From: an uncultured cyanobacterium
GTDB taxonomy: Bacteria; Cyanobacteriota; Cyanobacteriia; PCC-9006; JAAUQQ01
Length of the DNA: 64,000 bases
Assembly (NCBI GenBank): GCA_963718615.1
Contig: OY970368.1
Coordinates: 5,568,001-5,632,000 of the forward strand
Reading direction: 5' to 3'
Shown here: positions 4,871-55,003 of the stretch, piece after piece
How the letters are laid out: each line of letters starts with the position of its first letter
Position numbering within the stretch: position 1 is the first letter of the stretch
Program-made: the position numbers and the translations under genes
The notes under the pieces: generated by a model
Seen by the model: only the letters and a program-made list of their open reading frames with translations
The model's database searches: none
What the model was told of the DNA's origin: nothing

Positions 4871-5908
4871 TTAGGGAACAGGGCTGGCGCTGAGGTCGGG
4901 ATGGAGAATTCCGTTGAGGATGGTCTCGGGTCGTTTTTCGTGTTTCCAGGCGAAGGCATGCTTAAAGGCAGCTTCCTGGCAGGCGCGCAGTTGCTCGAAG
5001 TCGATGATGTTGTGGGTGAGCAGGTTTTCGTATTCGAAGGGCAGTCGCACGTTGTGCAACCCGGCGTTGTCGGTGCAGATGGCGATATCAACACCCGCTT
5101 CAAAGCAGCGATCGAAAACGATTTTGAGCGGGTCAATGCTGGGAAGGGTGCCGGTCTTGGTATAGGTGGTGGGACAAACCTCTAGACATTGGCCTCGGGC
5201 GGCTAGGTCCTTGAGTAATTCGGGGTGTTTGAGGGGGATCTGGATGCCGTGGCCGATACGCTGGAGATAGGGCAAGAGGGCAGGATGGCAACCGGCTTCG
5301 GTTTCGTAGAGGTGGCCGGTGGTGTTGATCCCGAGGGATTGAGCGTATTGGTAGAGCTGGGTGAATTCTTCGAGGCGATCGCCATACAACCCATCTCCCC
5401 CCGCCACATCGATCCCACAGACATACTGAGGATAGGCCGCCGCCAAATCCACCATGGCCCGGTTGACTTCGTAGGGCAGCCGCGAGTGCATACAGAGAAT
5501 CTGGCTGTTGACGATCGGGTAGAGCGTCGATTGGCTGGCTTGACCGACCACTTCAATGATCTGGGCGGTGGCGTCGATGCGCTCGGTTTGGCTGAGGTGT
5601 TCGGGGGTGCGCAGGTAAGGGGTATAGCGCAGCTCCAGGTAGGCGAGGTTTTCAAAGACATAGGCCCCGCGCAGCAGCCGGTAGATGAAGTAAGGCAGGG
5701 TTTCGATCGTCTGCACTTTTTCAACGAGGGTGTGCAGTTCTAGGTATTCGGCAAGGGTGTTGCGGGGCCGGGTGTAGAAGTCTTCAAAGTCGCTGTAATC
5801 GGCAAACTGAGCGGATGGCTCGGATTCGTTGCGTTGAAAATAGCCCCAGAGAATTCGGGGTACAACAGAACCGCCTAGGTGGCGGTGCAGCTCGGCGTAG
5901 AGGGCCAT
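4871..5908 (-). CDS. adenosine deaminase family protein
   Basis: AELHRHLGG metal-binding motif, YLELRYTP, RIGHG, LEVCPT, CTDN. Start placed at the ATG at 5908. Confidence 0.9.
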   Translation of the reverse strand: MALYAELHRHLGGSVVPRILWGYFQRNESEPSAQFADYSDFEDFYTRPRNTLAEYLELHTLVEKVQTIETLPYFIYRLLRGAYVFENLAYLELRYTPYLRTPEHLSQTERIDATAQIIEVVGQASQSTLYPIVNSQILCMHSRLPYEVNRAMVDLAAAYPQYVCGIDVAGGDGLYGDRLEEFTQLYQYAQSLGINTTGHLYETEAGCHPALLPYLQRIGHGIQIPLKHPELLKDLAARGQCLEVCPTTYTKTGTLPSIDPLKIVFDRCFEAGVDIAICTDNAGLHNVRLPFEYENLLTHNIIDFEQLRACQEAAFKHAFAWKHEKRPETILNGILHPDLSASPVP

Positions 5909-6082
5909 GGGGATAGAAGCTCCTGACTGATGAGAGGATGGCAAAGCACCTGCGCTCTGAGGATTTAGCTTTGCCGAAAAACTGGACGAATTAAACTTTA
6001 GGCCGCAACAATACTTTGGCGAGGGCACCTAGGATGCTCGCGATGCAAGCATTTGCGGGATTTAGGGTGAATTAGAGACATC

Positions 6083-9000
6083 CTAGCGCAGGCTGTTAAT
6101 TTTGGCCGCGTTTTTTTGAAATTTTCCAGGGGCACAGGCTAGCTGCGGCAATGCGACTGGTTCCGAGGATTGGGCGATGAGTTGGATGCCTTGGGGTGTG
6201 GTTTTCCAGGTGGTGGCTTCGAGGAGTGCGGGAGCGGGGGGCGACGGGTGCGATCGGGTGGAGGGGAATGTCTGGGGTGATGGGGTGACGGGGAGGGTGA
6301 CCCAGGTGGGGATCAGAGGTTGGGGGAAGGGTTCTTCTGGGCTGAGGGGAATACCGTTACGTCCGGTGATGATGAAGGAGCTGCGGCTGGCTTCACTGTT
6401 GGGAGAGCAACTATCGTCGATTCGATCGCTGGGGTCGGTGAGGGCTTCGGAGATCTGAAGGGTGCCTTGGCTGGGGTCAGTGTTGAGGCCGTTGAGATTG
6501 AGGATGCCGCTGGAGCCGAAGGCGGAGCTGGCGCTGATGTCGTTGGTTGTGTTGTTGCGGAGGGTGTTGACGTTGGGTTCGTCTTGCAACTGGAAGTTGA
6601 GGATGGCGTTGGCGTTGATGGTGATGTTGCCGCCGCTGCCGCTGAAGGCGTTAGCGATGATGTCGCTGTTTTCGTTGGGGAGACTGATCAGGAAGGGAGT
6701 GTTGATGGTGATGTTGCCGCCGTTTCCTGGGTTTTGACTATTTCCGGCGGTGGATGTAACTAAGCTAGCATTTCTCAACAAAAAAGATTGAGAATCTTTT
6801 TTGTCTATATCAATAACTATGTCACCTCCATTACCAAATGAGGAAACAGTCGACATCCCCCCTTTATCTAACGTTAGTTGAGCAGTGCTAATACCTATAG
6901 ACCCAGTTTCTCCCACTCCATCTGAAGCAGTAGTAATAAAGGGGAAGAGTTTATCCTGACTACTTTCTAAAATAGTTTCTCCATTTGCCTCAATTTTGAT
7001 ATTACCTGCATTACCTTTGCCAGAAGTTCGAGTTGAAATAAATGCCCCATCTCTGACCACAAAATTGTTTGTAAATATCTCTATTTTTCCTCCATTTCCT
7101 ATAGCTTCTGGTTCCACGGAAGTAGATATAAAGCTCTGTTTGCGTGATCTGTTATTTATACCATCTAAATAAACACTATTCCTAGCGCTTATCTTTAACT
7201 CACTTGCATCTCCTGTACCTTGCGTACTTGCGTTGATTCCTGCACCTCTAGTAATAACAATACTATCAGCTAAGATTTGAATGCTTTTGCCATTGCCAAT
7301 TGCTCCTGACGCAACAACGCTAGAAATACCGCTACCTACTGAGTTATTACGACCATCAAATTCAACTTTTCCTGCCACTGTAAGGTTTATCTCTCCGGTA
7401 TTCCCCACACCAGATGTTCCGACGCCTATTCCAGCTCCATTTGTTATTTTGATTTCTCCAGCATTAACATCAACTAATCCACCATCACCGACTGCACCTA
7501 CACCGACAATACTGCCGACACCACTAGCACCTTGCTCATCAGGTGTTGAACCATCAAAAGATGCTAGCCCTCTAACCGTGATGTTTATATCACCAGCATT
7601 CCCTTTCCCAAAAGTGCTAGCGTTTATGACTCCCCCATTTGTCGCCTTCAATAACTCTGTATCAATGCTAATTTTTCCACCATTTCCTACTGCCCCTGAT
7701 GCTACAATACTGCCAATTGTGCTAGGAAATTTGCCGCTTTCATCGGTACCATCAAGAAAAATACCATCTCTAGCTTGAATGAGAAGTATTCCAGCATCCC
7801 CTTCTCCAAAGGTACTTGTGTTGACGGTTGCGCCATTAACAATATTGAGCTCTCTCACGAAAAGCTCAATATTGCCAGCCTTTCCAACTCCATTATTGCT
7901 AACGCTGCTTCCAATAGTGCTACCGATATTATCAACTGAGCCAGTACTATCAAGAGAAACTACACCTGAGGCCTCAATTCTAAGATTGCCAGCGTTTCCC
8001 AGTCCTGAGGTTAAGCTACCTACGGTAGAGACTCCACTCAGACTCAAATCCTCTGTTTTCATCAACAAATTGCCAGCTGAACCAGTAGCACCATTGCTGA
8101 TTTCATTAATGATTAGGCTATCCCGTAGTCTAGTTTCTCTTTTGGTGCGGATTTGTATATCCCCAGATTTTGATTCAGGAGAACCCAAATCGAAGAAAAT
8201 TCCTGCTCCAAGAATACTTGAGTCTAGCAACTCTAAATTCTGGCTATTGACTTGTATATCACCACCTCCGCTCCAGCTAACAATTCCACGAGATTTTTCT
8301 CTGAATGAAATATCAGCCAGCTCTAAATTTTCTGGAAAGAGCAAGCTAAATTTTTCTGAGATTTCTACTTCTCCCATTCCTGCCACAGCACCTAAATCTA
8401 GCCTGCCTTCAAGTGCATACAATCCGCTTCCCACAACTTCAATGTCTCCTCCGAGCATCACGAGGCTTTTACCAATATCAACACCAATTCCAGTAAAAAA
8501 ATTTGGTAATGCAGGACTGAAAGGCCGTTTTGCTCTTACCTCGATTCTGCTTGGGGCTGCGTTTGTAAAAATGAATGAAGAGGGAAAAATTGTTAATAGT
8601 TCTGACACACTTCCCTTCTCTACACTAAATGTTCCCAGGGATTTGAATCTAACTCCTGTCGATGTCGATGCGATAAACGAGCCTCTTAAGTCAAGAGATG
8701 AATTCTCACCAAAGAGAATTCCGTTGGGGTTAAGAAAGAATAAATTTGCAGATGATGGCTGAAAAATACCATTAGAGAATCTCTTGAGTCCCTAGAGTTC
8801 CCAAAATATTCGATTTTTTGTTGCCTGTAATCCTAGCTAATACATTTTCAATTCCTGAATTAAAAATAAAAAATACGGAACGAAAACTACTAATGTCAAA
8901 ATTTTCAAAGCTATGAAATAAGTTTTTTCCTCGCTGTGCTCCACCTGAAACTAGGTCTACCTGCGGTATAAAATCTCGAGTTAATTGAGATGATTCTAAG

Positions 9001-9098
9001 CCTAAGCTTGTGTCTGGAATAATTTCCTGCAATCGCCCCACCTCCGCAGCCAAAGCCAAGCCACCAAGCCCCAACACCAAAACCGCTCGCAGTCCCAT
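6083..9098 (-). pseudogene. filamentous haemagglutinin / TpsA-like secreted beta-helix protein, split by a +1 frameshift at ~8771-8775
   Basis: ORF 8772-9098 has a signal peptide and NLFHSFENF...ENVLARITG, then stops at EIL*. The shifted frame continues NGIFQPSSANLFFLNPNGILFGENSSLDLRGSF, in frame with ORF 6083-8608. GNAGNI repeats and C-terminal SDIIANAFSGSGG...FIITGRNG follow. Confidence 0.85.
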
Positions 9099-9180
9099 TC
9101 GTTACACCCTAGTTGACAAACACAATCATCCTACCGAGCCCCACCGCCCCCAGCCGCCACCCTCACTACAAATCTTCAAT
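9040..9180 (-). repeat. repeat copy A: tpsA promoter/leader plus first codons
   Basis: + strand core caatcatcctaccgagccccaccgcccccagccgccaccctcactacaaatcttcaa at 9123-9179. The ATG at 9098 begins MGLRAVLVLGLGG. Confidence 0.85.
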
Positions 9181-9399
9181 ATCCGGCGGATGCCATCCAC
9201 TCAACACCCACCGTTCTCGCGCCTTCACAATCACCCAATCATTCATCCGCAGCGCCATCACCGTCGCCCGCCCAGTAGCCGTCAAGCCTTCCACTCGGCT
9301 TCCACCCGCCACCCAAGCAAAATGCTCAGTCCAACGCTGCTGCCTCGGATGAAACAATCGCACCCTTTCACCAGCGGCTGAACGACCTGTCCACGCCAC
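9166..9399 (-). pseudogene. C-terminal remnant of an HNH endonuclease-type toxin
   Basis: LFHPRQQRWTEHFAW...GLTATGRATVMALRMN...RWVLSGWHPP is the conserved tail of cyanobacterial HNH proteins. The N-terminal CEYC/HNH core is absent. Confidence 0.75.
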
Positions 9400-9776
9400 C
9401 GCAACAATGCAGCAGCATGGGCTTTACGCAACATGAATAAATCCGCCTCATGCCGCAACTTCTCAAGCTCCTGTTGCTCATGCAAGGGCAGCTCTCGTTC
9501 TTTTTTGAACTCTAACAGCTCGTCGTAGCGGTGTAGCTCATCCTCGGTACAACGAGCTTGAGCGACTTGCCACAGAGCTTCATCCTCCAAGCGATCCAGC
9601 GCCGCTAGCTCCGATTGAAATTGTGCTGGCACATCCTCCCAAGCTGGTGGACTCCCCACCGTTAATGCCCGCACAACAACCTCTTGCAACGGACGTCGCA
9701 TTGCAGCAGCAGTATTCACTAGCCGCAAATACAAAGCTTCAGGAAGTTCCAGCGTGACCGTTGCCGTTGACATCAA
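9282..9776 (-). CDS. putative antitoxin (partner of the HNH toxin), 3' end fused by deletion
   Basis: VTLELPEALY N-terminus and LRKAHAAALLRWRG C-terminal motif. Reads through into the HNH remnant out of frame. Confidence 0.65.
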   Translation of the reverse strand: MMSTATVTLELPEALYLRLVNTAAAMRRPLQEVVVRALTVGSPPAWEDVPAQFQSELAALDRLEDEALWQVAQARCTEDELHRYDELLEFKKERELPLHEQQELEKLRHEADLFMLRKAHAAALLRWRGQVVQPLVKGCDCFIRGSSVGLSILLGWRVEAEWKA

Positions 9777-9844
9777 GAGACTGCCTTCATCGTTGCTTAG
9801 AGTCTAGTCATATTCTAGTGCCACTTCATCAAAAATAAAGCAGC

Positions 9845-9990
9845 CTTGCAAACCCCGGCCCCGCCACCAAAGCCACCCAACCCAACCCCAAAAATACCCC
9901 GCATTCCCATAATCCGCACCAGACTCAGCCAACCCAATCATCCTACCGAGCCCCCACCCACCCAGCCGCCATTCCCACTACAAATCTTTA
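9845..9990 (-). repeat. repeat copy B: tpsA promoter/leader duplicate
   Basis: Core caatcatcctaccgagcccccacccacccagccgccattcccactacaaatcttta at 9935-9990. The ATG at 9910 begins MGMRGIFGVGLGG. Confidence 0.85.
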
Positions 9991-10010
9991 GACCTCCGGG
10001 ACAGCCCTGG

Positions 10011-10415
10011 CTACCAGATCGTCTCGATTACCGTTAGAGTCTGAATCTTGTGATCGCAAGTGACTAACGGTAAGCCTAATGCTAGCGCTGTTACTGCAAT
10101 CATGCGATCGCCCATTTCCGGCACAGTAACTTTTGGAACTTGCCGAAGCTGCTGTGCAATTTCCAAGCTAAACGACACCACTTTCAGACCCGAGTCAGAA
10201 TCCTGTAATACTTGATAGAGCATCTCTAGCGCAGCTTCAGGCAACCGCCCTTTTTCAACCAGATACGTGATTTCAACAATCGAAATTGAAGAGATGTAGA
10301 CAACATGACCAGAGGCTATTGCTTCCTCAATTCTGCTACTTGCGAGATCTGAAATTCTAGGAGAATCTAGCAACCACTAGACCACCGCGTGAGTATCCAG
10401 CACCAGCGAAGTCAT
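10011..10415 (-). pseudogene. vapC: VapC/PIN toxin with premature stop
   Basis: ATG at 10415 gives MTSLVLDTHAVV*WLLDSP (TAG at 10377-10379), then SIVEI, DRMIAVTA, LVTCD. Starts in an ATGA overlap with the antitoxin stop. Confidence 0.85.
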
Positions 10416-40794: not shown

Positions 40795-41771
40795 CTCATA
40801 GCCATTAAGGTTTGACAATCTGCCGGACTCAGGGACCATCCTAGAGCTCCGGCATTTTGTTGGGCTTGCAGAGCATTTTTGGCTCCTGGAATGGGGACGG
40901 TGCCTTGGGAAATCAGCCAATTGAGTGCCACTTGGGCGGGGGTTTTTTGGTGAGTTTGGGCGATCGCCCGCAAAGCTTCAAACAAAGGTTCTAGCTTTTT
41001 CAAGCCTGCTTCGCTAAAGCGGGGATCAAGCCGTCGTGCTCCCACAGGAGATTGGTCCGAGGTTGCGCTGTATTTTCCGGTGAGCAGTCCCTGGGCCAAG
41101 GGACTATAGGCCAAAATCGTCACTCCCAGGTCCTGGGCTGTGGCCAGAACTCCATTGGTTTCCACCTGTCGGGCGAGGAGCGAATATTGCACCTGATTGA
41201 CCGCCAAGGGAATCCCAAAGGAGGCAAGATAGTCGTGGGCCTGCTTCATTTGCTCCGCAGAATAATTGCTGACCCCGACGGTCTGAATCCGGCCTCGCTT
41301 AACCTCCTGGGCAAGTGCTTCCATCAAAGGGCGTGGCCCCAAAAAGAAATCCAAGGGCCAGTGGACCTGGTACAAGGTAACGGAAGTCACACCGAGGCGC
41401 GTTAAACTAGCAGTCAGGGCATCTTCCACCGCCGACGGGGTAAAGCGCCAAGGCAGGGGAAAATATTTGGTGGCAATCTGGATTGCAGGGTCCGAGGATT
41501 GGCGATTGGCCGCTCGAAGAAAGCGACCCAGTAGTCGTTCTGACTCCCCCAGTCCATAGACCTCAGCGGTATCAAAAAAACGGATGCCTGCTGCCACAGC
41601 TGCATTAAACGCAGCTTGGAGTTCGGCTTCTCCATAGCGATTGCCATAGCCCCAAAAGAGGCGATCGCCCCAAGCCCAAGTCCCGATCCCTAAGGCTGGA
41701 ATGCGTGGACCTTGGGGGCCTAGGATAACGGATTGCAGTTCAGCATCAGTGTCAAAGTTGAGCGAAGTCAT
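40791..41771 (-). CDS. aldo/keto reductase
   Basis: GIGTWAWG, FDTAEVYG, GVSNY, AYSPLAQGLLTGKY, IPGAKN. Confidence 0.93.
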   Translation of the reverse strand: MTSLNFDTDAELQSVILGPQGPRIPALGIGTWAWGDRLFWGYGNRYGEAELQAAFNAAVAAGIRFFDTAEVYGLGESERLLGRFLRAANRQSSDPAIQIATKYFPLPWRFTPSAVEDALTASLTRLGVTSVTLYQVHWPLDFFLGPRPLMEALAQEVKRGRIQTVGVSNYSAEQMKQAHDYLASFGIPLAVNQVQYSLLARQVETNGVLATAQDLGVTILAYSPLAQGLLTGKYSATSDQSPVGARRLDPRFSEAGLKKLEPLFEALRAIAQTHQKTPAQVALNWLISQGTVPIPGAKNALQAQQNAGALGWSLSPADCQTLMAMS

Positions 41772-42079
41772 AAACAATAAGGAGGTAGAAGAGCAGGAAC
41801 AATGATGGGGTAATAGATGAAGTTTTAACGAAGTAAAACGATTCTAGAAACTTAAATCAGAAACTTAAGCCAGAAACTGGAAAAGCGATCGCCTTCTGCT
41901 AACGAGATCTAAAAACTAAAGCTAAATTGTAAATGTTTCCGTAAACTAAGTAGATTTGAATCATCCTAAAGTCAGATTGACGCTGGGTGCTGGCGCTGCA
42001 TCGGCTTAAGCCAATGGGAATGCTCTGGAATGGGGCATGAAGAACCTGTATTCTCATAGATATTGCGAGGATTTATACC

Positions 42080-42796
42080 ATGGAGCTTCATAAAAACCTT
42101 AAGAAAAGTGGTGTTGAAAATAATTCTCTGCAACGTCTGATCCGAAGCCCTGGGTTTATTTGGGTCAATGGTCTTTCCATCGGATTTCTAGGGGCATTAG
42201 GCCTTTACGCACGCATTTTTAGTAAAGGAGTTGGGTTTTCACTCTTATTTAGCGATCCCTTTATTGGTCGACCCTTGTATCAAGGGCTATTTACCAATGT
42301 GTCTGAAGTGATTTGGTGTGTGGCCTTCTCCATTTGCCTGTTTAGTTTTGGCATGGTGCGATCGCTACGCCCCCCCCGTCAAGCGGATCGATTTTTGCTG
42401 GCAACAGCATTTCTAATTTTATTCTTGCTGCTAGATGATATTCAGAGAATCACATTGATTTTGCATTATGAGTTTGGATTGCCTAAAATTCTAATGCTGG
42501 GCTTTTATGGAATTATTGCTATTGCCTATGCGACTGTGTTTAGACGATATATTTTGCAGCGAACGCCGTATTTTTTGCTCATTATTACCATCGTCTTTTT
42601 CGTGATTTCGAGTTTGGCGGATGTGGCAACTGAGTTGTTTAGAATAGTGAATCAATTAGGCCCCATGGCGATGCTAGAAGACGGCAGTAAAATGATTGGG
42701 TTACTGAATCTCGTGCTATTTTGCTGGAAAGTGGGCCAGCAGGAAATCTTTGAGGCTATTCAGCAGCGCCCTTGGCCGTCGAAGCCGGTAGACTAA
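42080..42796 (+). CDS. hypothetical multi-pass membrane protein
   Basis: About six hydrophobic segments; LLLDD and LEDGSK motifs. Confidence 0.7.
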   Translation: MELHKNLKKSGVENNSLQRLIRSPGFIWVNGLSIGFLGALGLYARIFSKGVGFSLLFSDPFIGRPLYQGLFTNVSEVIWCVAFSICLFSFGMVRSLRPPRQADRFLLATAFLILFLLLDDIQRITLILHYEFGLPKILMLGFYGIIAIAYATVFRRYILQRTPYFLLIITIVFFVISSLADVATELFRIVNQLGPMAMLEDGSKMIGLLNLVLFCWKVGQQEIFEAIQQRPWPSKPVD

Positions 42797-46405: not shown

Positions 46406-46487
46406 AATACCGCAAGCTTAGGGGCTTGGGGATGAAAGCTAGAATAGACCTATGCATTGGACCCATCGCATAAGGACGGTCTTGCCC

Positions 46488-46952
46488 ATGGCTTCTCCCT
46501 TTCCGGGTATGGACCCGTATTTGGAACATCCTCGAACTGGGTCGAATGTTCACCATCGGTTGATTACGGCGATCGCGATCGCCCTCGCTCCCCAGGTAAG
46601 ACCGAAGTATCGGGTGGTGGTGGAGGAAACGGTATATCAAAAGTGGGAGCCGATGCCGATTACAGCTCCAGTGGTGATGTCGGCCTATCGGATTTTGGTG
46701 AGTGCTAGCAAGGCTCGGCCTCGGGCAGAGTTATATGCGTTTGGTCTAGCGGATCCGATTCCGGTGTTTGGGGTGCCGTTGGCGGAGGGAGATCCTTCCG
46801 CTCGGGTTGATCTGAGGCTGCTGCTGGATGGGATTTATGAGCAGTCGGGTTATGACTTGGTGATTGATTATCGTCAGTCTCCACAGCCGCCGTTGTCGGA
46901 GGTGGAGGGGGTTTGGGCTGAGGCTTGGTTGCGGGAGAAGGGGGTGATTTGA
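46488..46952 (+). pseudogene. DUF4058 family protein with apparent internal deletion
   Basis: The N-terminus SPFPGMDPYLE..VHHRLI and the C-terminus YRILVS..LYAF.L.DPIP..IDY.QSP.PPL are joined by only ~15 aa. The central E(I/L)LSPxNK region is missing. Confidence 0.65.
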
Positions 46953-47571
46953 GGGTTGCTATTTCGTTGATTCTTTACGGGGGAGATAGGTTTGTGGGGA
47001 TAGGGTTTCTGTGTTTTGCAAGAGGAGTTTCCGTAGGTGGATGTTGGTTTTGAAACGAAGTGTTACAGGGGGGCTACCGGAATCTAATTTGTCGGTAGGA
47101 TGAGAATTGAGATTAAGTCTCATAATGGTTTGAGCTTTGGCTAGAAGAATCTTTGGGGCGTTGAGTTGAGAGGTTGAATCAGTGGAAGATTTCGGTATAT
47201 GATCCTCAGTGGTATGACATGCAGAAAAGTTTGGCTTTTTTTAAGGAGTACGTGGGAAAATTCTGCATACTAAACTTGTTATACCGCAAGTTTTCGATGT
47301 GAGAATGCGAGCGCAATTTTATCTGTTAGTGTTTGAAATTAAGTAAGCATGCAGTTAATTAGATATCTTGCAAGAATATTTTTCCAGAGACTGGAACTCT
47401 TTTGGTTACGTTCAAAATCATGAAAATTAACGGGTTTTAATAGGGCATCAGCTCTCAAAAAGGTATCCGTGCAGCAGGTCTAATAGCGGACTCTTGCCAA
47501 TGGCTAAGCGTTAAGATTGCGGAAGTAAATGGGTTATCGGAATTCCATAAAAACACTCTTTGGGAACCTCT

Positions 47572-48366
47572 ATGGAGTTTGATCTGCGAAAGGCGATTAA
47601 CGCAATCTCAGATGTCGTTCAGAATCGACCAGTTCCACTTCGCGAATTCGACCAGATATATATGAAGGTCGCCGATATGGTTATCCAAGCGGAGTATGTG
47701 GCTCGTGTTTTTGACGACAAGGATGTCGTATTTGTCGGGGACGGTGATGGAATTGCACTGTCTGCTGCTCATTTAAAAGCTCAAAAGGTCATCAATTATG
47801 GCCCGCAATCAATTACTTTGCTCGATTTTGATGAACGGATCGTCAATTCTGTGCGGCGCTTTGGTGAAAAGCTTAGCCCTCACATCAAGATTTCATCACA
47901 TCTTTACAATGTGGCAGATGCATTACCTCCAGAACATTTTGGTGTATACGATGGGTTTCACATCAATCCGCCCTGGGGGGCAAGTAACGATGGGGAAAGT
48001 GTTATCGCCTTTTTTGAGCGTGGCAGTCAGGCAACAAAGGCGAAGAGTTTGGGGATTGTCGTTATAGCAGATGACCCTGACCTACTCTGGACTCAGGGAG
48101 TTTTACGAGATACGCAATGTCGTGCCCTTGAACTCGGATATGTAGTAGCCGAGATGCTGCCACAGCTACACCTTTATCATCTCGACGATGCACCTGATCT
48201 ACGGTCATGTTCGTGCCTATTTCGTCGTATTGATCCTAGTTGTATGCAGACTGTCTCGGAACCTCTTGAGTCGGCGCGGCTCGAAAATTTTTACGGCAAA
48301 AGTTCCCCGTTACGCTTTCGATACGTACGTGAGCGGACAACACTCAACACCGATAGAGAATCATGA
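47572..48366 (+). CDS. BpsA (branched-chain polyamine synthase)-like SAM-dependent transferase, 3' end interrupted by IS
   Basis: REFDQ, VVFVGDGDGIAL, LLDFDERIV, YNVADALP, FHINPPW. The TGA stop is supplied by the IS terminus. The native tail continues at 49656-49700. Confidence 0.75.
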   Translation: MEFDLRKAINAISDVVQNRPVPLREFDQIYMKVADMVIQAEYVARVFDDKDVVFVGDGDGIALSAAHLKAQKVINYGPQSITLLDFDERIVNSVRRFGEKLSPHIKISSHLYNVADALPPEHFGVYDGFHINPPWGASNDGESVIAFFERGSQATKAKSLGIVVIADDPDLLWTQGVLRDTQCRALELGYVVAEMLPQLHLYHLDDAPDLRSCSCLFRRIDPSCMQTVSEPLESARLENFYGKSSPLRFRYVRERTTLNTDRES

Positions 48367-48437
48367 GGTGGACCCAATCGACTGAACAGATTTAACAGGA
48401 GACTAAGCTCTGAATTCTCCCCGGATTGGACCTCTAT

Positions 48438-49301
48438 TCAGCGACTGCTCTCAGCTGCACCGTCAAAGTAAATCTCATCCGGTGTTTTGTAATCCAACGA
48501 CTGATGCAATCTCAACTGATTATACCAGCTAAACCATTTCTTCACCTCCTGATTTAAGTGATTCCCATCCTCAAAACTCTTCAGATAAATCAGCTCGTAC
48601 TTCAGCGATCGCCACAGCCTTTCAATGAAGATGTTGTCATGACACCTTCCCCGTCCATCCATGCTCACCTGGGCTCCGGCTGTTCTCAACCTCTCGGTAA
48701 ACACCTTCGCCGTGAACTGAGACCCCTGATCTGAATTGAAGATATCAGGACATCCATATTCCTCCAACGCTTCCTCCAATGCATCCAAACAGAACTGCAC
48801 ATCCATCGTGTTCGAGATTCGCCAGCTCAGCACCTTACGGCTGTACCAGTCCATAATCGCCACCAGATAGAAATGCCCCTTCAGCACCGGCAGATAGGTG
48901 ATGTCCGTGCTCCAGACCTGGTTTACCTTATCAATCGCCACACCCCTCAGCAGATAGGGATATATCTTGTGCTCCGGGTTTGCCACAGTCAGCTTCGGCT
49001 TCGGATACAGCGTTTGTAGACCCAGCTTTCGCATCAACCGCTGCACTCGCTTGCGATTCACATCATGACCCTCTCTCTTCAACTGAGCCGTCATCCGACG
49101 AGAGCCATAGAACGGCATCTCCAGATACAGCTCATCCAAGCGACGCAGCAGTTCTAGCTCAGAGTCACTCACTGCTTTGGCACGGTAGTACAAGCTCGAA
49201 CGGCTGATGCCCAGTAGCTGACATTGACGCACCAGGCTCAACTCCTCGTGCTCTCGCTCTACCAGGGCTTTTCGCTGCTCAACCCCAGTTTGGCTGAGCA
49301 C
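48438..49301 (-). CDS. IS3 transposase OrfB (DDE integrase core)
   Basis: YGSRRM, WSTDITY, DWYSR, NSDQGSQF, DNIFIERLWRSLKYE. Confidence 0.95.
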   Translation of the reverse strand: MLSQTGVEQRKALVEREHEELSLVRQCQLLGISRSSLYYRAKAVSDSELELLRRLDELYLEMPFYGSRRMTAQLKREGHDVNRKRVQRLMRKLGLQTLYPKPKLTVANPEHKIYPYLLRGVAIDKVNQVWSTDITYLPVLKGHFYLVAIMDWYSRKVLSWRISNTMDVQFCLDALEEALEEYGCPDIFNSDQGSQFTAKVFTERLRTAGAQVSMDGRGRCHDNIFIERLWRSLKYELIYLKSFEDGNHLNQEVKKWFSWYNQLRLHQSLDYKTPDEIYFDGAAESSR

Positions 49302-49582
49302 TCCGCTAAAAAATCCCGTTCCACCTTCAGCTTGCCGATTTGCCGATACAGCTCGTTGATTTCTGCCTGTTTATTCGCTTCCTCCTTTCCTCTATCAGAT
49401 GTCTGGCCTGAATCAAAGACGCTGCTTGCCCCTTCCAAGAGCTGCCTCTTCCACTGATGGATCAGCGTTGGATGCACATTGTGTTGGCTCGCCAGTTCCG
49501 GCACCGTCTTTGCCCCTTGCAAGGCTTCCAAGGCGATTCTCGATTTGAACTGGGCGCTGTACTGTCGGCGTTTCTTGCTCAT
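49259..49582 (-). CDS. IS3 transposase OrfA (HTH + leucine zipper), -1 frameshift to OrfB
   Basis: RRQYSAQFK...VHPTLIHQWK...LYRQIGKLKVERDFL. Slippery T-TTT-TTA at 49307-49313. Confidence 0.92.
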   Translation of the reverse strand: MSKKRRQYSAQFKSRIALEALQGAKTVPELASQHNVHPTLIHQWKRQLLEGASSVFDSGQTSDRGKEEANKQAEINELYRQIGKLKVERDFLAECSAKLGLSSEKPW

Positions 49583-49692
49583 CTTCTACTCCTATCATTT
49601 TTCGTGGAGTTTCAGAGCTTAACCCCCTGTCCAGTTTTTGGGGTCCACTATATCAGACCTTCTTTATACACTTGAAAAACTTGAGGTGGACA

Positions 49693-50265
49693 ATGGATGA
49701 CCAGATAAAGCAAGCAGGACTTATTTTTATGAAAGTTGGTCTGCATGCACAAGAGAGTATCGAAGATATTGTCGAGCGAAAGCAACGTGAATTTGAAGAA
49801 GCAGGCTCTATTTTTTGGGGCTATGGCGGTAATACTTGCCATCCACTCACTATGGTTCAACCGTTTGCAAAAGAGGTAGAAAAAAGTGGCAATCAAATTC
49901 TTATCGTTATGCAGAAGATGAACTCTAAACATGCTGCTCCACCAGAAATTGCTAAAGAGTACTCAGACGATGGTGTAAACTGGCAACCAATTCCCAAGGG
50001 TATAGAAGTTCGTGGGTCACGTTATGCACTAGTTCTGGATAAGCTTCGAGTCGAAGAGTTTGACTTGGATCTGGGTGAACTACAAGTTGGAATTGGACCT
50101 AGCCGTGGACGCAAAGCTGATCAATATTTAGTCGGTCAGGCGGACAAAGGATGCTTTCTTTATACGTCTCGGGAATCACCCATAACACAGGAGGAGCAGC
50201 CATTAAAACGTATCGGACTGGTTGCCAACGTTAAAGCACCTTATGCGGTTTTCCTCAAAAATTAA
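49693..50265 (+). CDS. hypothetical protein X (paralog of 52359-53171)
   Basis: ATG at 49693 after GAGGTGG, overlapping the native stop of the upstream transferase. FMKVGLHAQESIEDIVERKQREFEEAGSIFWGYGG...SRYALV. Confidence 0.8.
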   Translation: MDDQIKQAGLIFMKVGLHAQESIEDIVERKQREFEEAGSIFWGYGGNTCHPLTMVQPFAKEVEKSGNQILIVMQKMNSKHAAPPEIAKEYSDDGVNWQPIPKGIEVRGSRYALVLDKLRVEEFDLDLGELQVGIGPSRGRKADQYLVGQADKGCFLYTSRESPITQEEQPLKRIGLVANVKAPYAVFLKN

Positions 50266-50909
50266 CCAGATGTTGGGTATAGTAAGTTCCCTGTCACAGC
50301 ACGCAGATGATTGATGTACGAAGCTAGAGCCTCTTGCACTGACTCATAGTTTGCAGGAATAGTTACGCCAAATGCAATGTTCAATGCTTTATCGACATCA
50401 GGCTTCGATCTTACGCACTCTTGGACGTGAGTAAATTGATCCTCAACTAAGTACGAGAACAGCACTTCCATCGATATCACACGACCCGCCAGTGCATTGG
50501 CGAGGTAGGCGACAGATTCATGAGAGCAAAGCGCTGCTAGCGATCGCTTATCGCCCGTAATGATAAGTGCATCTCTAGCAGTAGCACCTACTGCAAGCAG
50601 CAAGGCTTCTCCGGTGTCGATATTTTGTACCGCACTCATTGCATCCAATAGATCTGGGTCAGCCAATCTAGCATCCAAGGACTTAGCGATTTTGAGGAAT
50701 GATTCTAGCCTAGAGTAGCTCTCTTCATCCTCACAAAAAAGCAAGCGATTTTTGGCGGGGAGGAGGACGTATTTTGCAGTCGCAAGCACCCGTACATCCG
50801 TGATTGTGAAATCGAATCGAGCTATGACCTCATCAAGTAGCCCGTAACGTGCAAGTTTAATTAAGGCATCGTTATCGATCAGAAACAGCCGATCCATGAA
50901 CGACCTCAC
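50262..50909 (-). CDS. PIN-domain protein (putative nuclease toxin)
   Basis: LIDNDALIKL, IDTGEALLL, IITGDKR: the acidic PIN active-site pattern. GTGA overlap with the peptidase stop. Confidence 0.75.
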   Translation of the reverse strand: MRSFMDRLFLIDNDALIKLARYGLLDEVIARFDFTITDVRVLATAKYVLLPAKNRLLFCEDEESYSRLESFLKIAKSLDARLADPDLLDAMSAVQNIDTGEALLLAVGATARDALIITGDKRSLAALCSHESVAYLANALAGRVISMEVLFSYLVEDQFTHVQECVRSKPDVDKALNIAFGVTIPANYESVQEALASYINHLRAVTGNLLYPTSG

Positions 50910-51952
50910 TCAAGGTGCGATCCAGTAACTCTACCAAGGAATTCCAGGGTTTCCATCGGCAAGGTTTCAGGGTTGATGTGACCCCACATCGCTGCATTAA
51001 TAATTACTGGTGCGGGTGGATTCCCACCTTGCAACACCTTTGCGGCTGCAATACCCATTTCCCATTTCCCGGACTGATTCGCAAAGTTCAACACAATGTG
51101 TCCAGGATCGATGTGGTGGTTCTTGCCAAATCTAAACGCTGAATCAGCTAGTTCTCTGAAATTAACGTGACTATCTGAGGGAGTATAAGTCGCATCAGGT
51201 CTAGCGTTTAATAGCTCGATCGCAAACGCATCAGCCGTACGCTCGTCCAAATCGGCATCCTTCAGAGCGTAGGAGTCCTCGCTAAGCTCCTCATCAATCA
51301 ATATTTCATTGGGAGCCACATGCCCCAGCGCCAAGTGAGCGACTTCATGAGCCAAAATAAAGAGTTGCCACGCCCAGAGAGGAGACGCTTTTGACAAAAT
51401 GATGACGGGTCGGCTGTCCGTATGAATCACCATGCCATCCATTTTCGCTACACCGATGCCAAGTTCAGCCAGATAAATCACAGGCACGCCATGCAACCAG
51501 CAAAACAGGAGTAAATTTCTCAGCCCTAGCCAGTTACCTGGAAAGGAGGTCAGCACCTCTTGACGAAGAGCATTAGCACTACTGACAAACGGAATAAATT
51601 CTACACCACAAGCTGCTGCAACGGATTCCGCAACGCTAACTGCAATTGCTGTAGATGCCGTCAAGTTCTTCGCCTTGTTTGGAATTGAGCGCTTGTATTT
51701 CACGTCACGTCGCCGAAGCGATTCGACTCGTGGACTTGCATCAAAAAGAGGACTAGTACGAAGACCAAGCCGCTTTGCGAGAATCGCCGCAATTTCTAAC
51801 GATGCCGAGGTATCTGATAAAACTTCCGGTGTCACCCATTCGGGGAGCAGCACATTTTGTATGCTGCGTGGGAAGCCAGCAGATTCCAGGGAAACAAAGA
51901 TCCTATCGATCTGATGATTAGATGTGTCCGCGTGAATCTCCTGCTGTGTCAT
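50906..51952 (-). CDS. ImmA/IrrE family Zn metallopeptidase
   Basis: GVPVI, MDGM, RPVIIL, FILAHEVAHLALGH (HExxH), ERTADAFA. Confidence 0.88.
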   Translation of the reverse strand: MTQQEIHADTSNHQIDRIFVSLESAGFPRSIQNVLLPEWVTPEVLSDTSASLEIAAILAKRLGLRTSPLFDASPRVESLRRRDVKYKRSIPNKAKNLTASTAIAVSVAESVAAACGVEFIPFVSSANALRQEVLTSFPGNWLGLRNLLLFCWLHGVPVIYLAELGIGVAKMDGMVIHTDSRPVIILSKASPLWAWQLFILAHEVAHLALGHVAPNEILIDEELSEDSYALKDADLDERTADAFAIELLNARPDATYTPSDSHVNFRELADSAFRFGKNHHIDPGHIVLNFANQSGKWEMGIAAAKVLQGGNPPAPVIINAAMWGHINPETLPMETLEFLGRVTGSHLE

Positions 51953-52289
51953 CTACTTTTCTGGTTAACCCTTTCAGGCACTTAATCACTGCAAGCAAAG
52001 CTTTCCCGCCTGCCTCTGTTCCGTCCCATACATCAATAATAGCGTCTCGCAGTAGGTCATCATATCTATGACTAGCTTTACAATCTGTAACAGACAGCAC
52101 AGCATAGAAATTGCATAGCTTATTGAATGACTGGCTGATGCGCTGACGCTTCCCATCGAATCGTCGCATACGCGAAACAGTTGGCTGACTCACAGAGGCT
52201 AGTCGAGCGATTTCACTTGAGGAGCGGCTATCAGCTCTTAGGCAGGATAGTAGTTGTTGAACCACCAATTGAGTTTGGTCATTTGTCAT
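51918..52289 (-). CDS. small HTH transcriptional regulator
   Basis: SSSEIARLASVSQPTVSRM helix-turn-helix; first gene of the HTH-peptidase-PIN operon. Confidence 0.82.
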   Translation of the reverse strand: MTNDQTQLVVQQLLSCLRADSRSSSEIARLASVSQPTVSRMRRFDGKRQRISQSFNKLCNFYAVLSVTDCKASHRYDDLLRDAIIDVWDGTEAGGKALLAVIKCLKGLTRKVDDTAGDSRGHI

Positions 52290-52291
52290 GT

Positions 52292-52342
52292 CTATTCATT
52301 ATGTTATTCGATGATTACTAATGAATAGCATAATGATATAAT
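52292..52342. promoter_or_regulatory. divergent promoter with palindromic operator
   Basis: CTATTCATTA (52292-52301) / TAATGAATAG (52319-52328) is a perfect IR. TCATTATGTTATTC / GAATAGCATAATGA is a 13/14 IR. TATAAT lies at 52337-52342. Confidence 0.7.
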
Positions 52343-52358
52343 TCTAGTCACTAGGGAT

Positions 52359-53171
52359 ATGGACACGATCATGAAAAAAATTCCCCCGACATTTTGCTGG
52401 ACTAAAATGGGATCTGAAGCTGGAGAAGAGTTGACGGCAATTATTCGTAGGAAGGAGTGGGAACGCCAATTAGGTGGTGGATACTTCTTTTGGGGAATTG
52501 GTCAGTCTCTCGGTGAAAATGCTAAAGTTGTAGCCCCTAAAATAGCTTCTTTACATGTGATTTTTTCACCAATGCCCAGCAAGCCTAAGCTAATTGATGT
52601 GGCACCGAATGATGTGGCTATATGGAACGCCTGGATTGATGCACAAGGCGTGGTAAGAAGATTGCCACTTCATTGCTTCATCACGAGTCGCGCATCTTTA
52701 CCCTCTGGCAGGAAAAAAGAAAGTCATTATGCTTTGGTGTGTTTCTCCGATCAGGAATTGGATAAACAGAGTAATGAAATCTTTATATTTCCAAACCACC
52801 TTCGCAATGTAGCAACCAATAAACCTCTTGGAGCATCACAGGTGACAGCTGTTGTTCATGCCCCAAATCTGGGAGATAAAACATCTGATGCCAAAAGCTA
52901 TTCTGTTAGTTTTACTGCTGAACTTCGTTTACCCTATTGTGTACAACTAGCTCAGCCATTATTGCTAGATGTGGAGGAACTTATTGAAATTAAGAAAATC
53001 ACAAATTTAGGTGATACTGAATCGTGGAAAGCTCTGGTTACATCTATCCGTTCTCGTATGATAGAAGAAATAAATTGGGTGCAATGCACATTAGATTTTG
53101 TTAATGAAGATGACTCATCGTTCACTGATAGCCTGAGTGTGCTTCATTGCTCTGGATATAGCAATGTATAG
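52359..53171 (+). CDS. hypothetical protein Y (paralog of 49693-50265)
   Basis: WTKMGSEAGEELTAIIRRKEWERQLGGGYFFWGIG...SHYALV. Confidence 0.8.
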   Translation: MDTIMKKIPPTFCWTKMGSEAGEELTAIIRRKEWERQLGGGYFFWGIGQSLGENAKVVAPKIASLHVIFSPMPSKPKLIDVAPNDVAIWNAWIDAQGVVRRLPLHCFITSRASLPSGRKKESHYALVCFSDQELDKQSNEIFIFPNHLRNVATNKPLGASQVTAVVHAPNLGDKTSDAKSYSVSFTAELRLPYCVQLAQPLLLDVEELIEIKKITNLGDTESWKALVTSIRSRMIEEINWVQCTLDFVNEDDSSFTDSLSVLHCSGYSNV

Positions 53172-53511
53172 AATCTTTCTCAAAGCAAACGTGTCTTTAT
53201 TTTTGAATTTATTAAATGTTAATTAGAGTTTTTCGGAGATCTTAAGTTTCGAAAAAACTCTAGTACTAGATGGCATAAGTTCTTCGACTACTCATCTTTC
53301 TGACGTCTGACCGCATAGGCTGCCAGGCTGTCTACATGAATTGGTCGTCTAGATATTTACGCCAAGCAATACTAGGGAGAGGATTAAATATTGGAGATTT
53401 AGGGGGTAATCGGTGAGATTAAGGCGTAAATAGGCGTGGTGGTGCGGACTGTTGCAATCCAAATTGTAGCGTATCAAAGATTCTTTGTAGTCGCTGACTA
53501 CGAACGTTAAT

Positions 53512-53626
53512 GGTAGTGCTATTTCCGAAAGGCTAGAGAATAAGCAAGTAATCGTAAAAATCTTGCATTACAAGGAATCCTAGGCCTGTGCCTGTTTTTC
53601 TATGGCCCGCCCATAATAGCACTACC
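53512..53626. mobile_element. 115-bp MITE with IS1-like terminal inverted repeats
   Basis: Perfect 12-bp TIR GGTAGTGCTATT / AATAGCACTACC; no TSD visible. Confidence 0.7.
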
Positions 53627-53628
53627 CA

Positions 53629-53781
53629 GATATTGAGCAGGCTAAAGAACTGTACCAAGAATATAAAAGAAGAAAGAAAAAAGCTGGCGGAGCAGGAATA
53701 AAAAAAGAAGCTGAAAAAAGAAGAGAAAGAAGAGGTAAAGAGCATGGTATTAACAAGAGACTTCAAAGAAACAGTGAATGA
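53629..53781 (+). pseudogene. C-terminal remnant of a RelE/HigB-type addiction-module toxin
   Basis: DIEQAKELYQEYKRRKKK... begins right after the MITE and overlaps the antitoxin start. Confidence 0.6.
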
Positions 53782-54106
53782 ACGAATACAACGAAATCCT
53801 GAATTCGCAGCATCTCTTCTGGATGAAGCTATTTCTCTTTTTCTCAAGGGTGAACCAGAAACGGCAAGACTTATTTGGAGAGAACTCGTAAATGCAACTG
53901 TGGGTTTTGAAAAACTAGCAGTCGAAACTGCTAAACCCAGCAAAAGCCTTCACCGGATGTTATCTGCAACAGGCAATCCTACAATGGATACTCTGACTAG
54001 TATTCTTAATGTTCTTCGTAAGACTCCGTATGTAGATATAGGTAGTCCTATTTCGGTAAGGATAGCCACAACCCCTTTCACGCAGAGTTTTCAGCGCTTA
54101 GAGTAA
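53744..54106 (+). CDS. addiction-module antitoxin (HTH), C-terminus replaced by MITE sequence after 54040
   Basis: MVLTRDFKETV...LLDEAI...GFEKLA...KSLHRMLS..GNPT. Confidence 0.8.
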   Translation: MVLTRDFKETVNERIQRNPEFAASLLDEAISLFLKGEPETARLIWRELVNATVGFEKLAVETAKPSKSLHRMLSATGNPTMDTLTSILNVLRKTPYVDIGSPISVRIATTPFTQSFQRLE

Positions 54107-54293
54107 ACTTTATAGACCTGAAGTATCCTGGATTTTCTCACGGTTTTACAGCCACAAAGCCAAGATATTCACGAAATAATAGGTGCTCTGGGCCATCTCA
54201 TCGGCAGATACTTACCCTTTTCTACAGAGAAAGAAATTTGTGAAACTGGTGCTGATAGAGAGTTTCAGCCATCCTTACCTTTGGATCACTACC
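54041..54293. mobile_element. ~253-bp MITE / IS remnant with related TIRs
   Basis: GGTAGTCCTATTTCGGTAAGGATAGC at 54041 versus reverse-complement GGTAGTGATCCAAAGGTAAGGATGGC ending 54293 (18/26 identical). The left end resembles the 53512 element. Confidence 0.6.
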
Positions 54294-54405
54294 AAGCGTT
54301 GAAGAGGGCTGGGTTAAGGGAAAAGCTGGCATTGTGGTTTTATGCTTCAAAGAGGGCGAGTCGGTATAATTGAAAGTAAGGTCTAGAACCAACCGTTGCG
54401 CTACC

Positions 54406-54618
54406 ATGCAGATCACTCTGAATCTTGATGAGTCTCTTCTCAATGAAGCCCTTGAACTGACTAATCTTTCCACACAAGAAGAGTTGTTAGTCTTAGCTTT
54501 GCGCGAATTGGTGCGATCGCGGCGCAAGAAAAATCTTCTCGACCTCGCGGGAAAAATTCAGTTTACCGAGGATTTTGATCACAAAGACCTGCGTGAGACT
54601 CGTCATGCTGCTGATTGA
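54406..54618 (+). CDS. vapB: VapB antitoxin
   Basis: MQITLNLDESLLNEAL...ALRELV...LLDLAGKI; overlaps vapC. Confidence 0.85.
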   Translation: MQITLNLDESLLNEALELTNLSTQEELLVLALRELVRSRRKKNLLDLAGKIQFTEDFDHKDLRETRHAAD

Positions 54619-55003
54619 TACCTCGGTTTGGATCAGCGTCTTCCGCGATCGCACAGGTCAAGTCCGCCAAAAACTCGAAACACTGATTGACGATCGTGAC
54701 GTCTTCCTGGCGCGGTTCACTCAGCTTGAATTGCTTCAGGGGAGCTTGAACGAAAAAGAGTGGACGCTTCTTTCTAGCTATCTTAAAACCCAGGACTACG
54801 TGGAACTAACGAATGACTCTTGGCAAGCAGCAGCGCGGATTTTTTATGACTTGCGTCGTCAAGGGCTGACTGTTCGGAGTCCGATTGATTGCTGTATCGC
54901 TCAAGCTGCTTTGGAGAATGATTTACTGTTGATTCACAACGATCGCGATTTTGAGACAATTGCTCAAGCGAGATCGCTACAACACTTCCACTTTCAACCT
55001 TGA
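54605..55003 (+). CDS. vapC: VapC PIN toxin (intact)
   Basis: LIDTSVWI, ELLQG, DCCIA, LIHNDRDF. Confidence 0.9.
   Translation: MLLIDTSVWISVFRDRTGQVRQKLETLIDDRDVFLARFTQLELLQGSLNEKEWTLLSSYLKTQDYVELTNDSWQAAARIFYDLRRQGLTVRSPIDCCIAQAALENDLLLIHNDRDFETIAQARSLQHFHFQP

Follow-up and report, generated by a model that had tools for sequence, protein, structure and literature searches.

A mobile six-gene cassette is found in a 64,000-nucleotide stretch of the genome of an uncultured cyanobacterium (GenBank assembly GCA_963718615.1, contig OY970368.1, positions 5,568,001 to 5,632,000); this whole stretch is here called the window. The cassette encodes a transferase of the BpsA_C family (T), two proteins of a new family (X and Y), an ImmA/IrrE-type zinc peptidase (PEP), a PIN-like protein that is a putative nuclease, and a helix-turn-helix (HTH) protein that is optional. 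The order is T> X> <PIN <PEP <HTH Y>, where the arrowheads give the strand, and an insertion sequence (IS) lies between T and X. The six genes almost certainly constitute a functional unit. This unit is probably a conflict system built on a peptidase-nuclease pair similar to RosmerTA, a toxin-antitoxin (TA) system. Whether one arm of it writes on nucleic acid (T-X) while another serves as reader and effector (Y-PEP-PIN) is evenly balanced, both roles being inferred. Phage defence is the first reading of such a conflict cassette and TA-like addiction the fallback; it is a good candidate, with all its activities predicted.

The genes recur together in distant bacteria. A scan for X over one genome per species gave 26 loci, at which the six proteins were then placed by tblastn. 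The order T> X> <PIN <PEP ... Y> is found in 21 of these loci, which are distributed over Cyanobacteria, Betaproteobacteria and Acidobacteria (Pyrinomonadaceae). Local decay is present in some of the 21: locus L020 has frameshifts in PEP and HTH, L030 a short T, and L031 stop codons in Y. Three further loci are cut by contig ends and agree as far as they are present. L033 has lost T and two thirds of X, while L027 (Dehalococcoidia) is rearranged and cut: its contig opens with PIN-like> T> X> and continues with genes of no relation to the cassette. Rearranged cassettes are found on Pseudomonas and Sinorhizobium plasmids. In P. koreensis plasmid p1 the block [Y|HTH-PEP-PIN] is inverted, giving T> X> kinase> <Y HTH> PEP> PIN>, and S. 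fredii plasmid pSfreNXT3b carries T> X> <PIN <PEP <Y, a version that lacks the HTH gene and has Y, PEP and PIN in one operon. Intact cassettes are carried by plasmid p6912-2 of Chlorogloeopsis fritschii PCC 6912, by Nodosilinea LEGE 07088 and by Cupriavidus consociatus; those of L009 (7110-11560), L013 and L019 are free of the IS. The complete set of six is also present on two IMG/VR contigs, and another such contig breaks off after PIN. An initial annotation, made from the letters of the window only, had staked its proposal of a system on the co-occurrence of these genes in other genomes; they do recur, in one order and across phyla. In two cyanobacterial cassettes (L012, 8573-9781, and L016, 8573-9854) an extra 1.2-1.3 kb is present between X and the PIN-like gene.

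The linkage is tight also at the level of gene junctions. The layout, coordinates and overlapping junctions of the initial annotation were all correct, and so were the NPPW motif in T and the HExxH motif in PEP, both of which are invariant in relatives. X always follows directly after T, and the stop codon of T lies within -17 to +10 nt of the start of X in all 25 loci that have both genes. The stop codons of X and PIN overlap by 4 nt, PIN (from its GTG start) overlaps PEP by 4 nt, and PEP overlaps HTH by 35 nt. Y is always found in a common spacer or operon with the HTH, PEP and PIN genes. An adenylate-kinase-like P-loop gene of about 195 amino acids is an optional seventh member, present in eight of 32 loci (L019, L022, L023, L024, L028, L034, L035 and L036), with no cyanobacterial copy. 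Its position varies between before T, after Y, and between X and Y; it is matched by Pfam AAA_17 at up to 1.6e-17 and by the archaeal adenylate kinase 3h86 at 2.8e-5. Other neighbours vary by genome, and the 119 flanking open reading frames (ORFs) of 25 cassettes display no more than a mild enrichment in mobile or defence-like genes.

The initial annotation described the region as an AT-rich, HIP1-poor island acquired horizontally, and this holds on every count. The guanine-cytosine (GC) content is 0.39-0.49 across 47000-54500 and 0.55-0.60 in the flanks. The window has 101 copies of HIP1 (GCGATCGC) against an expected 1.02. Within 46582-54513 only two sites are found, one at 48605, within the IS, and one at 50540, the very two that had been reported. 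The island is thus foreign by composition. Homology by blastn to the cassettes of L009 and L010 covers 47510-48363 and 49652-53249 and ends there, and an imperfect hairpin, found by eye, is present at 53226-53261, near the right end of the cassette. The DNA is 87-94% identical to the cassettes of Pegethrix and Nodosilinea. With the X/Y profile only one of 401 sampled genomes of the same phylum was matched, namely the window's own, and three of 401 in the order of genome G401; in four genomes (G000, G401, G402 and G403) exactly two genes each were matched, both within the cassette. Because it is rare in the phylum, shares 87-94% DNA identity across genera and is plasmid-borne, the cassette is horizontally mobile. 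Two patches outside it, 47278-47357 and 53376-53429, are 79-89% identical to the flanks of the L009, L010 and L033 cassettes, and could be termini of a more extensive mobile unit, or else regulatory pieces that are conserved.

PEP just passes the cut-off of Pfam Peptidase_M78 (24 bits against 22) and is matched over its full length by phrog_18577 (1.7e-55). In the PDB it finds a 393-aa 'HTH cro/C1-type domain-containing protein' (2.1e-4), and its NCBI name on the plasmids is 'ImmA/IrrE family metallo-endopeptidase'. The HExxH motif (HEVAH) is intact, and all 17 sequences compared keep H202, E203, H206 and H211. PADLOC matches are weak: capP at 2.8e-6, PD-Lambda-2_B at 2.9e-6 and RmrA at 4.8e-5 (20.4 bits). 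RmrA is the zinc-peptidase antitoxin of RosmerTA, which according to the accessible parts of the reports is a phage-protective TA system (10.1101/2022.05.11.491447, PMC10440598).

PEP is found directly upstream of the PIN-like gene in every locus long enough to tell. The latter probably starts at ATG 50897 because its homologues are mostly 211 aa long. The initial annotation called its product a PIN domain, and this is supported in part. When profiles were compared with hhalign, 20 VapC paralogues of the same genome gave 67.2% (E 5.1e-5, 117 columns) and four controls 0.2% or less, the nearest named Atlas clusters among language-model neighbours are DUF3368/PIN/PIN_13 (score 0.91-0.92), and one UniRef entry for a relative is named 'PIN domain-containing protein'. 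The Pfam PIN families, on the other hand, matched none of 17 members. D98, E101, D120 (in TGDKR), E148 and D173 are invariant, and D12 and D14 are conserved at 90% or more. In the hhalign alignment D12/D14, D98/E101 and D120 fall on three of the PIN acidic positions, and the second position (Glu) has no acidic partner. The assignment to the PIN family is of moderate strength. The protein is also matched by phrog_15597 (3.6e-25). A tblastn search of 50,697 phage records with PIN gave no match, although relatives are present on IMG/VR contigs. PEP and PIN are found without the other genes, at about 30% identity, in 16 of the 19 loci from IMG/VR, and the two stand-alone pairs examined (L037 and L048) lie amid terminase, portal and capsid genes. 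The PEP-PIN pair is thus a module of its own in prophages, similar to RosmerTA and to the predicted HTH/DUF955/PIN triads. This, together with the optional nature of HTH and the clipping of T by the IS (see below), goes beyond the initial annotation.

The HTH gene product is weakly matched by HTH_5 (0.0024, the best) and by phrog_6831, a transcriptional regulator (6.7e-4), and by tblastn it is detected in 12 of the 26 loci. The operator proposed in the initial annotation corresponds to a conserved perfect 10-bp inverted repeat (CTATTCATTA / TAATGAATAG) in the spacer between HTH and Y. A TATAAT, found by eye, is present at 52337-52342, 8 nt past the repeat, while a consensus promoter scan of this spacer gave no sigma-70 site. 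L009 and L010 carry the repeat unchanged. L033 has an identical right arm and a left arm with one base changed (TCATCA for TCATTA); the longest perfect repeat in its spacer is a different 9-mer. It is near-identical in the betaproteobacterial L019, L023 and L024, is found as a half-site in L012, L013, L017, L025 and L026, and is absent from the HTH-less cassettes L014, L016 and L021. Judged from this pattern, HTH would be an optional component that regulates Y and presumably also the operon in which it lies. A divergent HTH|Y pair only, with 56% and 48% identity, is found in the betaproteobacterial genome G439 (L063, C4:87000-106000, 8877-10055). There is no T, X, PEP or PIN within about 8 kb of it, an S15 peptidase and hydrolases adjoin, and the pair represents a remnant or, alternatively, a minimal module.

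T is matched by Pfam BpsA_C over residues 14-218 (2.4e-14, 53.6 bits, cut-off 27), with residue 14 aligning to position 4 of the C-domain profile, which is about residue 133 of the BpsA chain. The BpsA enzymes 2qm3 and 5xnc are found in the PDB with the single sequence, and 2qm3 (4.3e-13), 5xnc (1.6e-11) and 6j27 (8.7e-11) with the profile. BpsA enzymes are the only significant solved relatives, METTL5 reaching E 0.29 only. Intact T orthologues have 273-285 aa. The motif GDGD (G60-D61-G62-D63), which aligns to the GDDD of BpsA, is invariant in 16 of 16 sequences, NPPWGASN (NPPW being N136-W139) is also invariant, and the orthologues share a C-terminal acidic tail with the consensus GRExDxxYxLExLE. 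Motif IV of amino-methyltransferases has the form (D/N/S)PP(Y/F/W), of which NPPW is one, and GDGD resembles the GGGDGG box of spermidine synthases. In PADLOC only mad2 is matched (1.9e-6), and on plasmids NCBI names the protein 'bis-aminopropyl spermidine synthase family protein' or 'putative methyltransferase'; T and PEP are the sole cassette proteins with an NCBI name there. The identity T = BpsA was considered and is ruled out by GDGD for GDDD, NPPW for DPPE and the lack of the N-terminal domain. In BpsA, Asp159 and Asp160 of GDDD hold the aminopropyl group of decarboxylated S-adenosylmethionine (SAM) and are termed 'indispensable' in the accessible part of the paper (PMC12979288). T had initially been described as a SAM-dependent amine-modifying enzyme, and of this the BpsA_C match and NPPW support the enzyme class, while the donor is less certain. 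T may transfer a methyl or an aminopropyl group, and may use SAM or decarboxylated SAM.

X and Y were noted from the start as paralogues, and so they are by profile comparison: hhalign gives 94.8% (E 4.8e-8, 163 columns), where BLASTP reaches E 6e-4 only. They have G16, I26, R29, K30, E33, G38, W42, G43, G45 and W97 in common, and each also has invariant polar residues of its own. X keeps at least 50% identity across phyla. None of its 1146 homologues has a Pfam domain, and among 120 listed nearly all are 186-194 aa long. The X/Y family comprises 1144 clusters at 50% identity (E 0.001 or better) and has no match in Pfam, NCBIfam, PHROGs or PADLOC. Its best 150 representatives are all 136-308 aa, and no fused forms were found among these, the search not covering the 'longer' length class. 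The N-terminal extensions of nine representatives were looked at and appear to be mis-called starts. Atlas gave no usable match to Y, and the X, Y and PIN profiles found nothing meaningful among PDB chains.

The initial annotation further proposed that X and Y are readers of modified bases. AF2 models have a pLDDT (predicted local distance difference test) of 90.1 for X and 80.7 for Y, in which residues 239-270 are disordered. At E 0.001 or better Foldseek found nothing for X against the PDB or BFVD, or for Y against the PDB. The top structural matches of both models are YTH, EVE, McrB-N, THYN1 and ASCH entries, and by title YTH, McrB-N, THYN1 and ASCH entries make up 14 of the 23 rows obtained with X and 9 of the 26 obtained with Y. 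The highest Z reached is 3.5 (X) and 3.3 (Y), at a root-mean-square deviation (rmsd) of 3.7-4.4 Å over 96-113 residues. Of the reader proposal, then, the recurrent type of neighbour speaks in its favour and the Z of 3.5 or less against it; the likeness is a weak lead from predicted models and no fold assignment. A predicted complex of T and X scored 0.18 against a mark of 0.32, and is counted neither for nor against binding.

A mechanism can be proposed in which the cassette has two arms. One would be PEP and the PIN-like nuclease, similar to RosmerTA and mostly preceded by an HTH repressor with its operator in the spacer shared with Y. The other would be T, a putative BpsA_C-family N-alkyltransferase translationally coupled to X. 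With X as substrate-binding partner, T might place an alkyl mark (methyl or aminopropyl) onto a nucleic-acid amine, and Y might sense the ligand of X in its marked or unmarked state. Upon a signal from Y, or a phage or damage cue, PEP would remove the HTH repressor and/or free PIN, which would then cut RNA or DNA, so that the infected cell is stopped. In its most specific form, this would be an immune system similar to restriction-modification but assembled from unrelated components, where T-X writes an N-alkyl mark and Y reports its presence or absence to the protease-gated PIN. This form is distinctly unlikely. If it were true, X and Y would be a new PUA-like family of partners and readers for modified-base writers, and the mark could be a new nucleic-acid modification, possibly aminopropyl rather than methyl.

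The stand-alone PEP-PIN pairs of prophages also fit another explanation, in which HTH-PEP-PIN is a selfish TA system stabilising its element while T, X and Y are a linked trait of a different nature that plays no part in phage defence. The cassette is plasmid-borne, moves between phyla and has flanks that are no clear defence islands, and such triads have been predicted to be TA systems, as far as the accessible parts of the literature go (PMC5499597, PMC2701414). This explanation is nevertheless held to be unlikely, if worth keeping in view, as T, X and Y stay with the PEP-PIN lineage in 21 of the 26 loci and keep their places through rearrangements. Y moreover lies in the PEP-PIN promoter region or operon, and together these facts suggest a single machine, not a module with cargo. 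RosmerTA-type pairs also do defend against phage according to the accessible text (PMC10440598). Chance neighbourhood in an island of debris could be suspected from the IS, the decayed DUF4058 gene and the TA genes around; it is refuted by the recurrence of this set and order in 21 of 26 loci (three phyla) as well as on plasmids and viral contigs, and its probability is next to nil.

Other rivals concern T and its substrate. T could be a true aminopropyl (or methyl) transferase for a polyamine, nucleotide or comparable amine in a small-molecule pathway, with X and Y as enzymes or binders, the optional P-loop kinase phosphorylating the compound, and HTH, PEP and PIN regulating or enforcing the pathway. 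The fact that BpsA polyamine synthases are the only significant solved relatives of T is in line with this, as are the likeness of GDGD to the spermidine-synthase GGGDGG box, the invariant His, Cys, Asp and Lys of X, and the adenylate-kinase-like gene in eight of 32 loci. We regard it as rather improbable all the same: T departs from BpsA in the motifs and in the missing domain described above, the cassette has no further conserved neighbour for biosynthesis, transport or decarboxylation, and both the tie to a nuclease and a protease and the rarity would be unusual for metabolism. T might also N-alkylate the protein X (or Y), the modified protein being the active regulator of PEP-PIN. NPPY-type enzymes include protein glutamine methyltransferases, T and X are strictly coupled in translation and co-occur 1:1, and X is extremely conserved, with invariant Lys and Cys residues. 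Nothing points directly to such a reaction, and it is judged very unlikely.

Several observations weigh against a conflict cassette that marks and reads nucleic acid. X, Y, PIN and HTH have no PADLOC match at E 0.1 or better, which leaves a defence role without support from homology. The nearest solved relatives of T make a small-molecule polyamine, and the adenylate-kinase-like gene in eight of 32 loci hints at nucleotides, not polymers. The invariant polar residues of X are many (H18, C49, H50, H80, D151, K152 and C154) and suit an enzyme better than a passive reader, and the structural Z of X and Y of 3.5 or less falls far short of what the tool treats as meaningful, the best Z by chance being typically 7-8. 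At least three cassettes (L014, L016 and L021) lack the HTH gene, their spacer of 91-98 nt leaving no room for it. Of the 119 flanking ORFs only a handful appear defence-like (two each of KAP/QatA-like, PtuA/AriA-like and kinase/PD-T4-6-like), and many are housekeeping genes. Survival of the cell on a clipped T also speaks against a strict antidote role for T, but the insertion is recent.

This insertion is an IS3-family element of which the 6.1-Mb genome holds eight copies with 100% identity. The element is active; three copies are found within 7.4 kb near 1.555 Mb (C1:1553101-1560439), and C1:5484678-5485182 holds a fragment with 89% identity. Contigs of two public sequencing runs join 48359 to 49652, skipping 1292 nt, which equals the 1289 of the IS plus the three of the TCA duplication. 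As the IS copies are identical and the IS-free junction is present in public contigs, the insertion is recent. The first three bases of the IS supply the stop codon of T (TGA, 48364-48366), so that T is clipped of its last 14 residues, the acidic tail, and X is uncoupled from T. The orphaned end of T encodes DLLYTLEKLEVDNG*, the same residues with which the intact orthologue in L009 ends, and overlaps the start of X by 8 nt (ATGGATGA). The writer arm (T-X) may thus be impaired in this genome. Among the sequencing runs none contains more than 0.23 of the sampled words; in one metatranscriptome, small RNA-library contigs lie over T, X and PEP, which amounts to a weak hint of expression. The coordinates of all features are collected in Table 1.

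Table 1. Location of the cassette, its genes and neighbouring features in the window
Feature	Position	Strand	Basis
Mobile cassette including IS	47510..53262	.	blastn homology limits, GC dip, HIP1 gap
T, BpsA_C-family transferase, clipped	47572..48363 (alternative TTG start 47560; ORF end 48366)	+	Pfam BpsA_C
Target-site duplication TCA	48361..48363 left, 49653-49655 right	.	sequence and IS ends
IS3-family element, 1289 bp	48364..49652	-	Pfam HTH_Tnp_1, rve, rve_3, HTH_21
IS orfB	48438-49301	-	
IS orfA	49259-49582	-	
Orphaned T 3' end, last 14 codons and stop	49656..49700	+	translation
X, 190 aa	49693..50265	+	start ATG 49693, not TTG 49672
PIN-like protein, putative toxin/effector	50262..50897 (ATG, 211 aa) or ..50909 (GTG, 215 aa)	-	profile comparison
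PEP, ImmA/IrrE (M78) Zn-peptidase, 348 aa	50906..51952	-	Pfam Peptidase_M78
HTH protein, 123 aa, putative repressor, optional	51918..52289	-	weak HTH matches
Operator-like perfect 10-bp inverted repeat, 17-nt spacer	52292..52328	.	in 69-bp HTH/Y spacer
Y, 270 aa, X paralogue with variable C-terminal tail	52359..53171	+	hhalign
DUF4058 gene, internally deleted	46452-46952		254-position profile matched in two stretches of 166-aa ORF
VapB (4.3e-14)/VapC-PIN (1e-12), seemingly intact, and preceding 120-aa ORF	53744-54106, 54370-55003		Pfam

The flanks, too, agree with the first description, in which the island sits between a decayed DUF4058 gene and TA/MITE debris. To the left a lycopene-cyclase gene and the internally deleted DUF4058 gene are found, and to the right the VapB/VapC pair; the 120-aa ORF ahead of this pair has no Pfam match. 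In the AT-rich debris past Y (53512-53626) there is a 32-nt imperfect inverted repeat, 72% complementary and with its arms 51 nt apart, which looks like a miniature inverted-repeat transposable element. Elsewhere in the window two further long stretches are free of HIP1 (5382-10104 and 24743-32069) and the GC content dips to 0.42-0.47 at 41500-42500; these may be more foreign islands.

No named system for the full gene set is found in PADLOC-DB 2.0. The literature likewise gave none, in a search whose scope excluded the supplements of TA and PIN classification papers, which possibly list the PIN cluster; this agrees with the initial annotation, which recognised no named system. In NCBIfam the six proteins gave nothing above noise. 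If phage defence is the function, the sensing and marking arm of the cassette would consist of components new to defence, namely a polyamine-synthase-like transferase and a protein family that lacks both a Pfam model and a clear structural relative. With its 1144 clusters the X/Y family is of considerable size, and in the four genomes counted it is confined to the cassette; the study of one cassette would annotate the whole family.

BpsA, the N4-bis(aminopropyl)spermidine synthase (EC 2.5.1.128), shares with T the catalytic C-terminal domain, including the REFDQxY block and an acidic C-terminal tail. The acidic cluster of BpsA acts as aminopropyl carrier, a role that the tail of T may or may not share. 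BpsA has 351-375 aa with an N-terminal domain, whereas T has about 280 aa without it. T furthermore is found in mesophiles and its gene in a mobile cassette. Study of the cassette would show whether a BpsA-type enzyme can act on nucleic acids. For X and Y the PUA-like modified-base readers (YTH/EVE/ASCH) are the best and recurrent structural neighbours, and the context, a transferase and a nuclease, is similar to that of modification-dependent restriction. The matches, however, have a Z of 2-3.5 and an rmsd of 3.7-5.5 Å with no sequence similarity, and the readers in modification-dependent restriction enzymes are fused to nucleases while X and Y are separate proteins.

The regulatory genes are similar to CapH/CapP, ImmR/ImmA and DdrO/IrrE, where an HTH repressor is likewise found by an M78 peptidase with intact HExxH; the operator-like repeat in the divergent promoter region of the cassette adds to this likeness. 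Unlike in those systems, no genes of the cyclic-oligonucleotide-based anti-phage signalling system (CBASS), of integrative and conjugative elements or of SOS type are under control in the cassette. PEP is also longer, with conserved N- and C-terminal extensions, and HTH is sometimes absent. Triads of HTH, DUF955 and PIN-like proteins have been predicted to be three-component TA systems (PMC5499597, PMC2701414). In the accessible parts of these papers (Makarova 2009; Matelska 2017) the HTH-DUF955/COG2856 protease-PIN-like order is that of the cassette, the triads are frequent in prophages and HExxH is kept; in the window HTH, PEP and PIN are on one strand, joined by overlaps or an 8-nt gap. The PIN-like protein here differs in matching no Pfam PIN family (0 of 17), and the same parts describe no linked transferase or X/Y-type genes.

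RosmerTA (RmrT/RmrA) likewise has a zinc peptidase of about 340-400 aa encoded beside a toxin gene on mobile elements, and Ernits et al. describe, in the accessible text, ImmA-type antitoxin nodes paired with PIN-like toxins (PMC10440598). The matches of PEP to RmrA are weak (20 bits or less), capP and PD-Lambda-2_B being slightly better, and the accessible descriptions of RosmerTA make no mention of genes of the T, X or Y type. Toxicity is only predicted for the cassette, which differs further in its separate, optional HTH and in having T, X and Y permanently joined to the pair. Its study would also show what a stand-alone RosmerTA-like pair gains from accessory genes.

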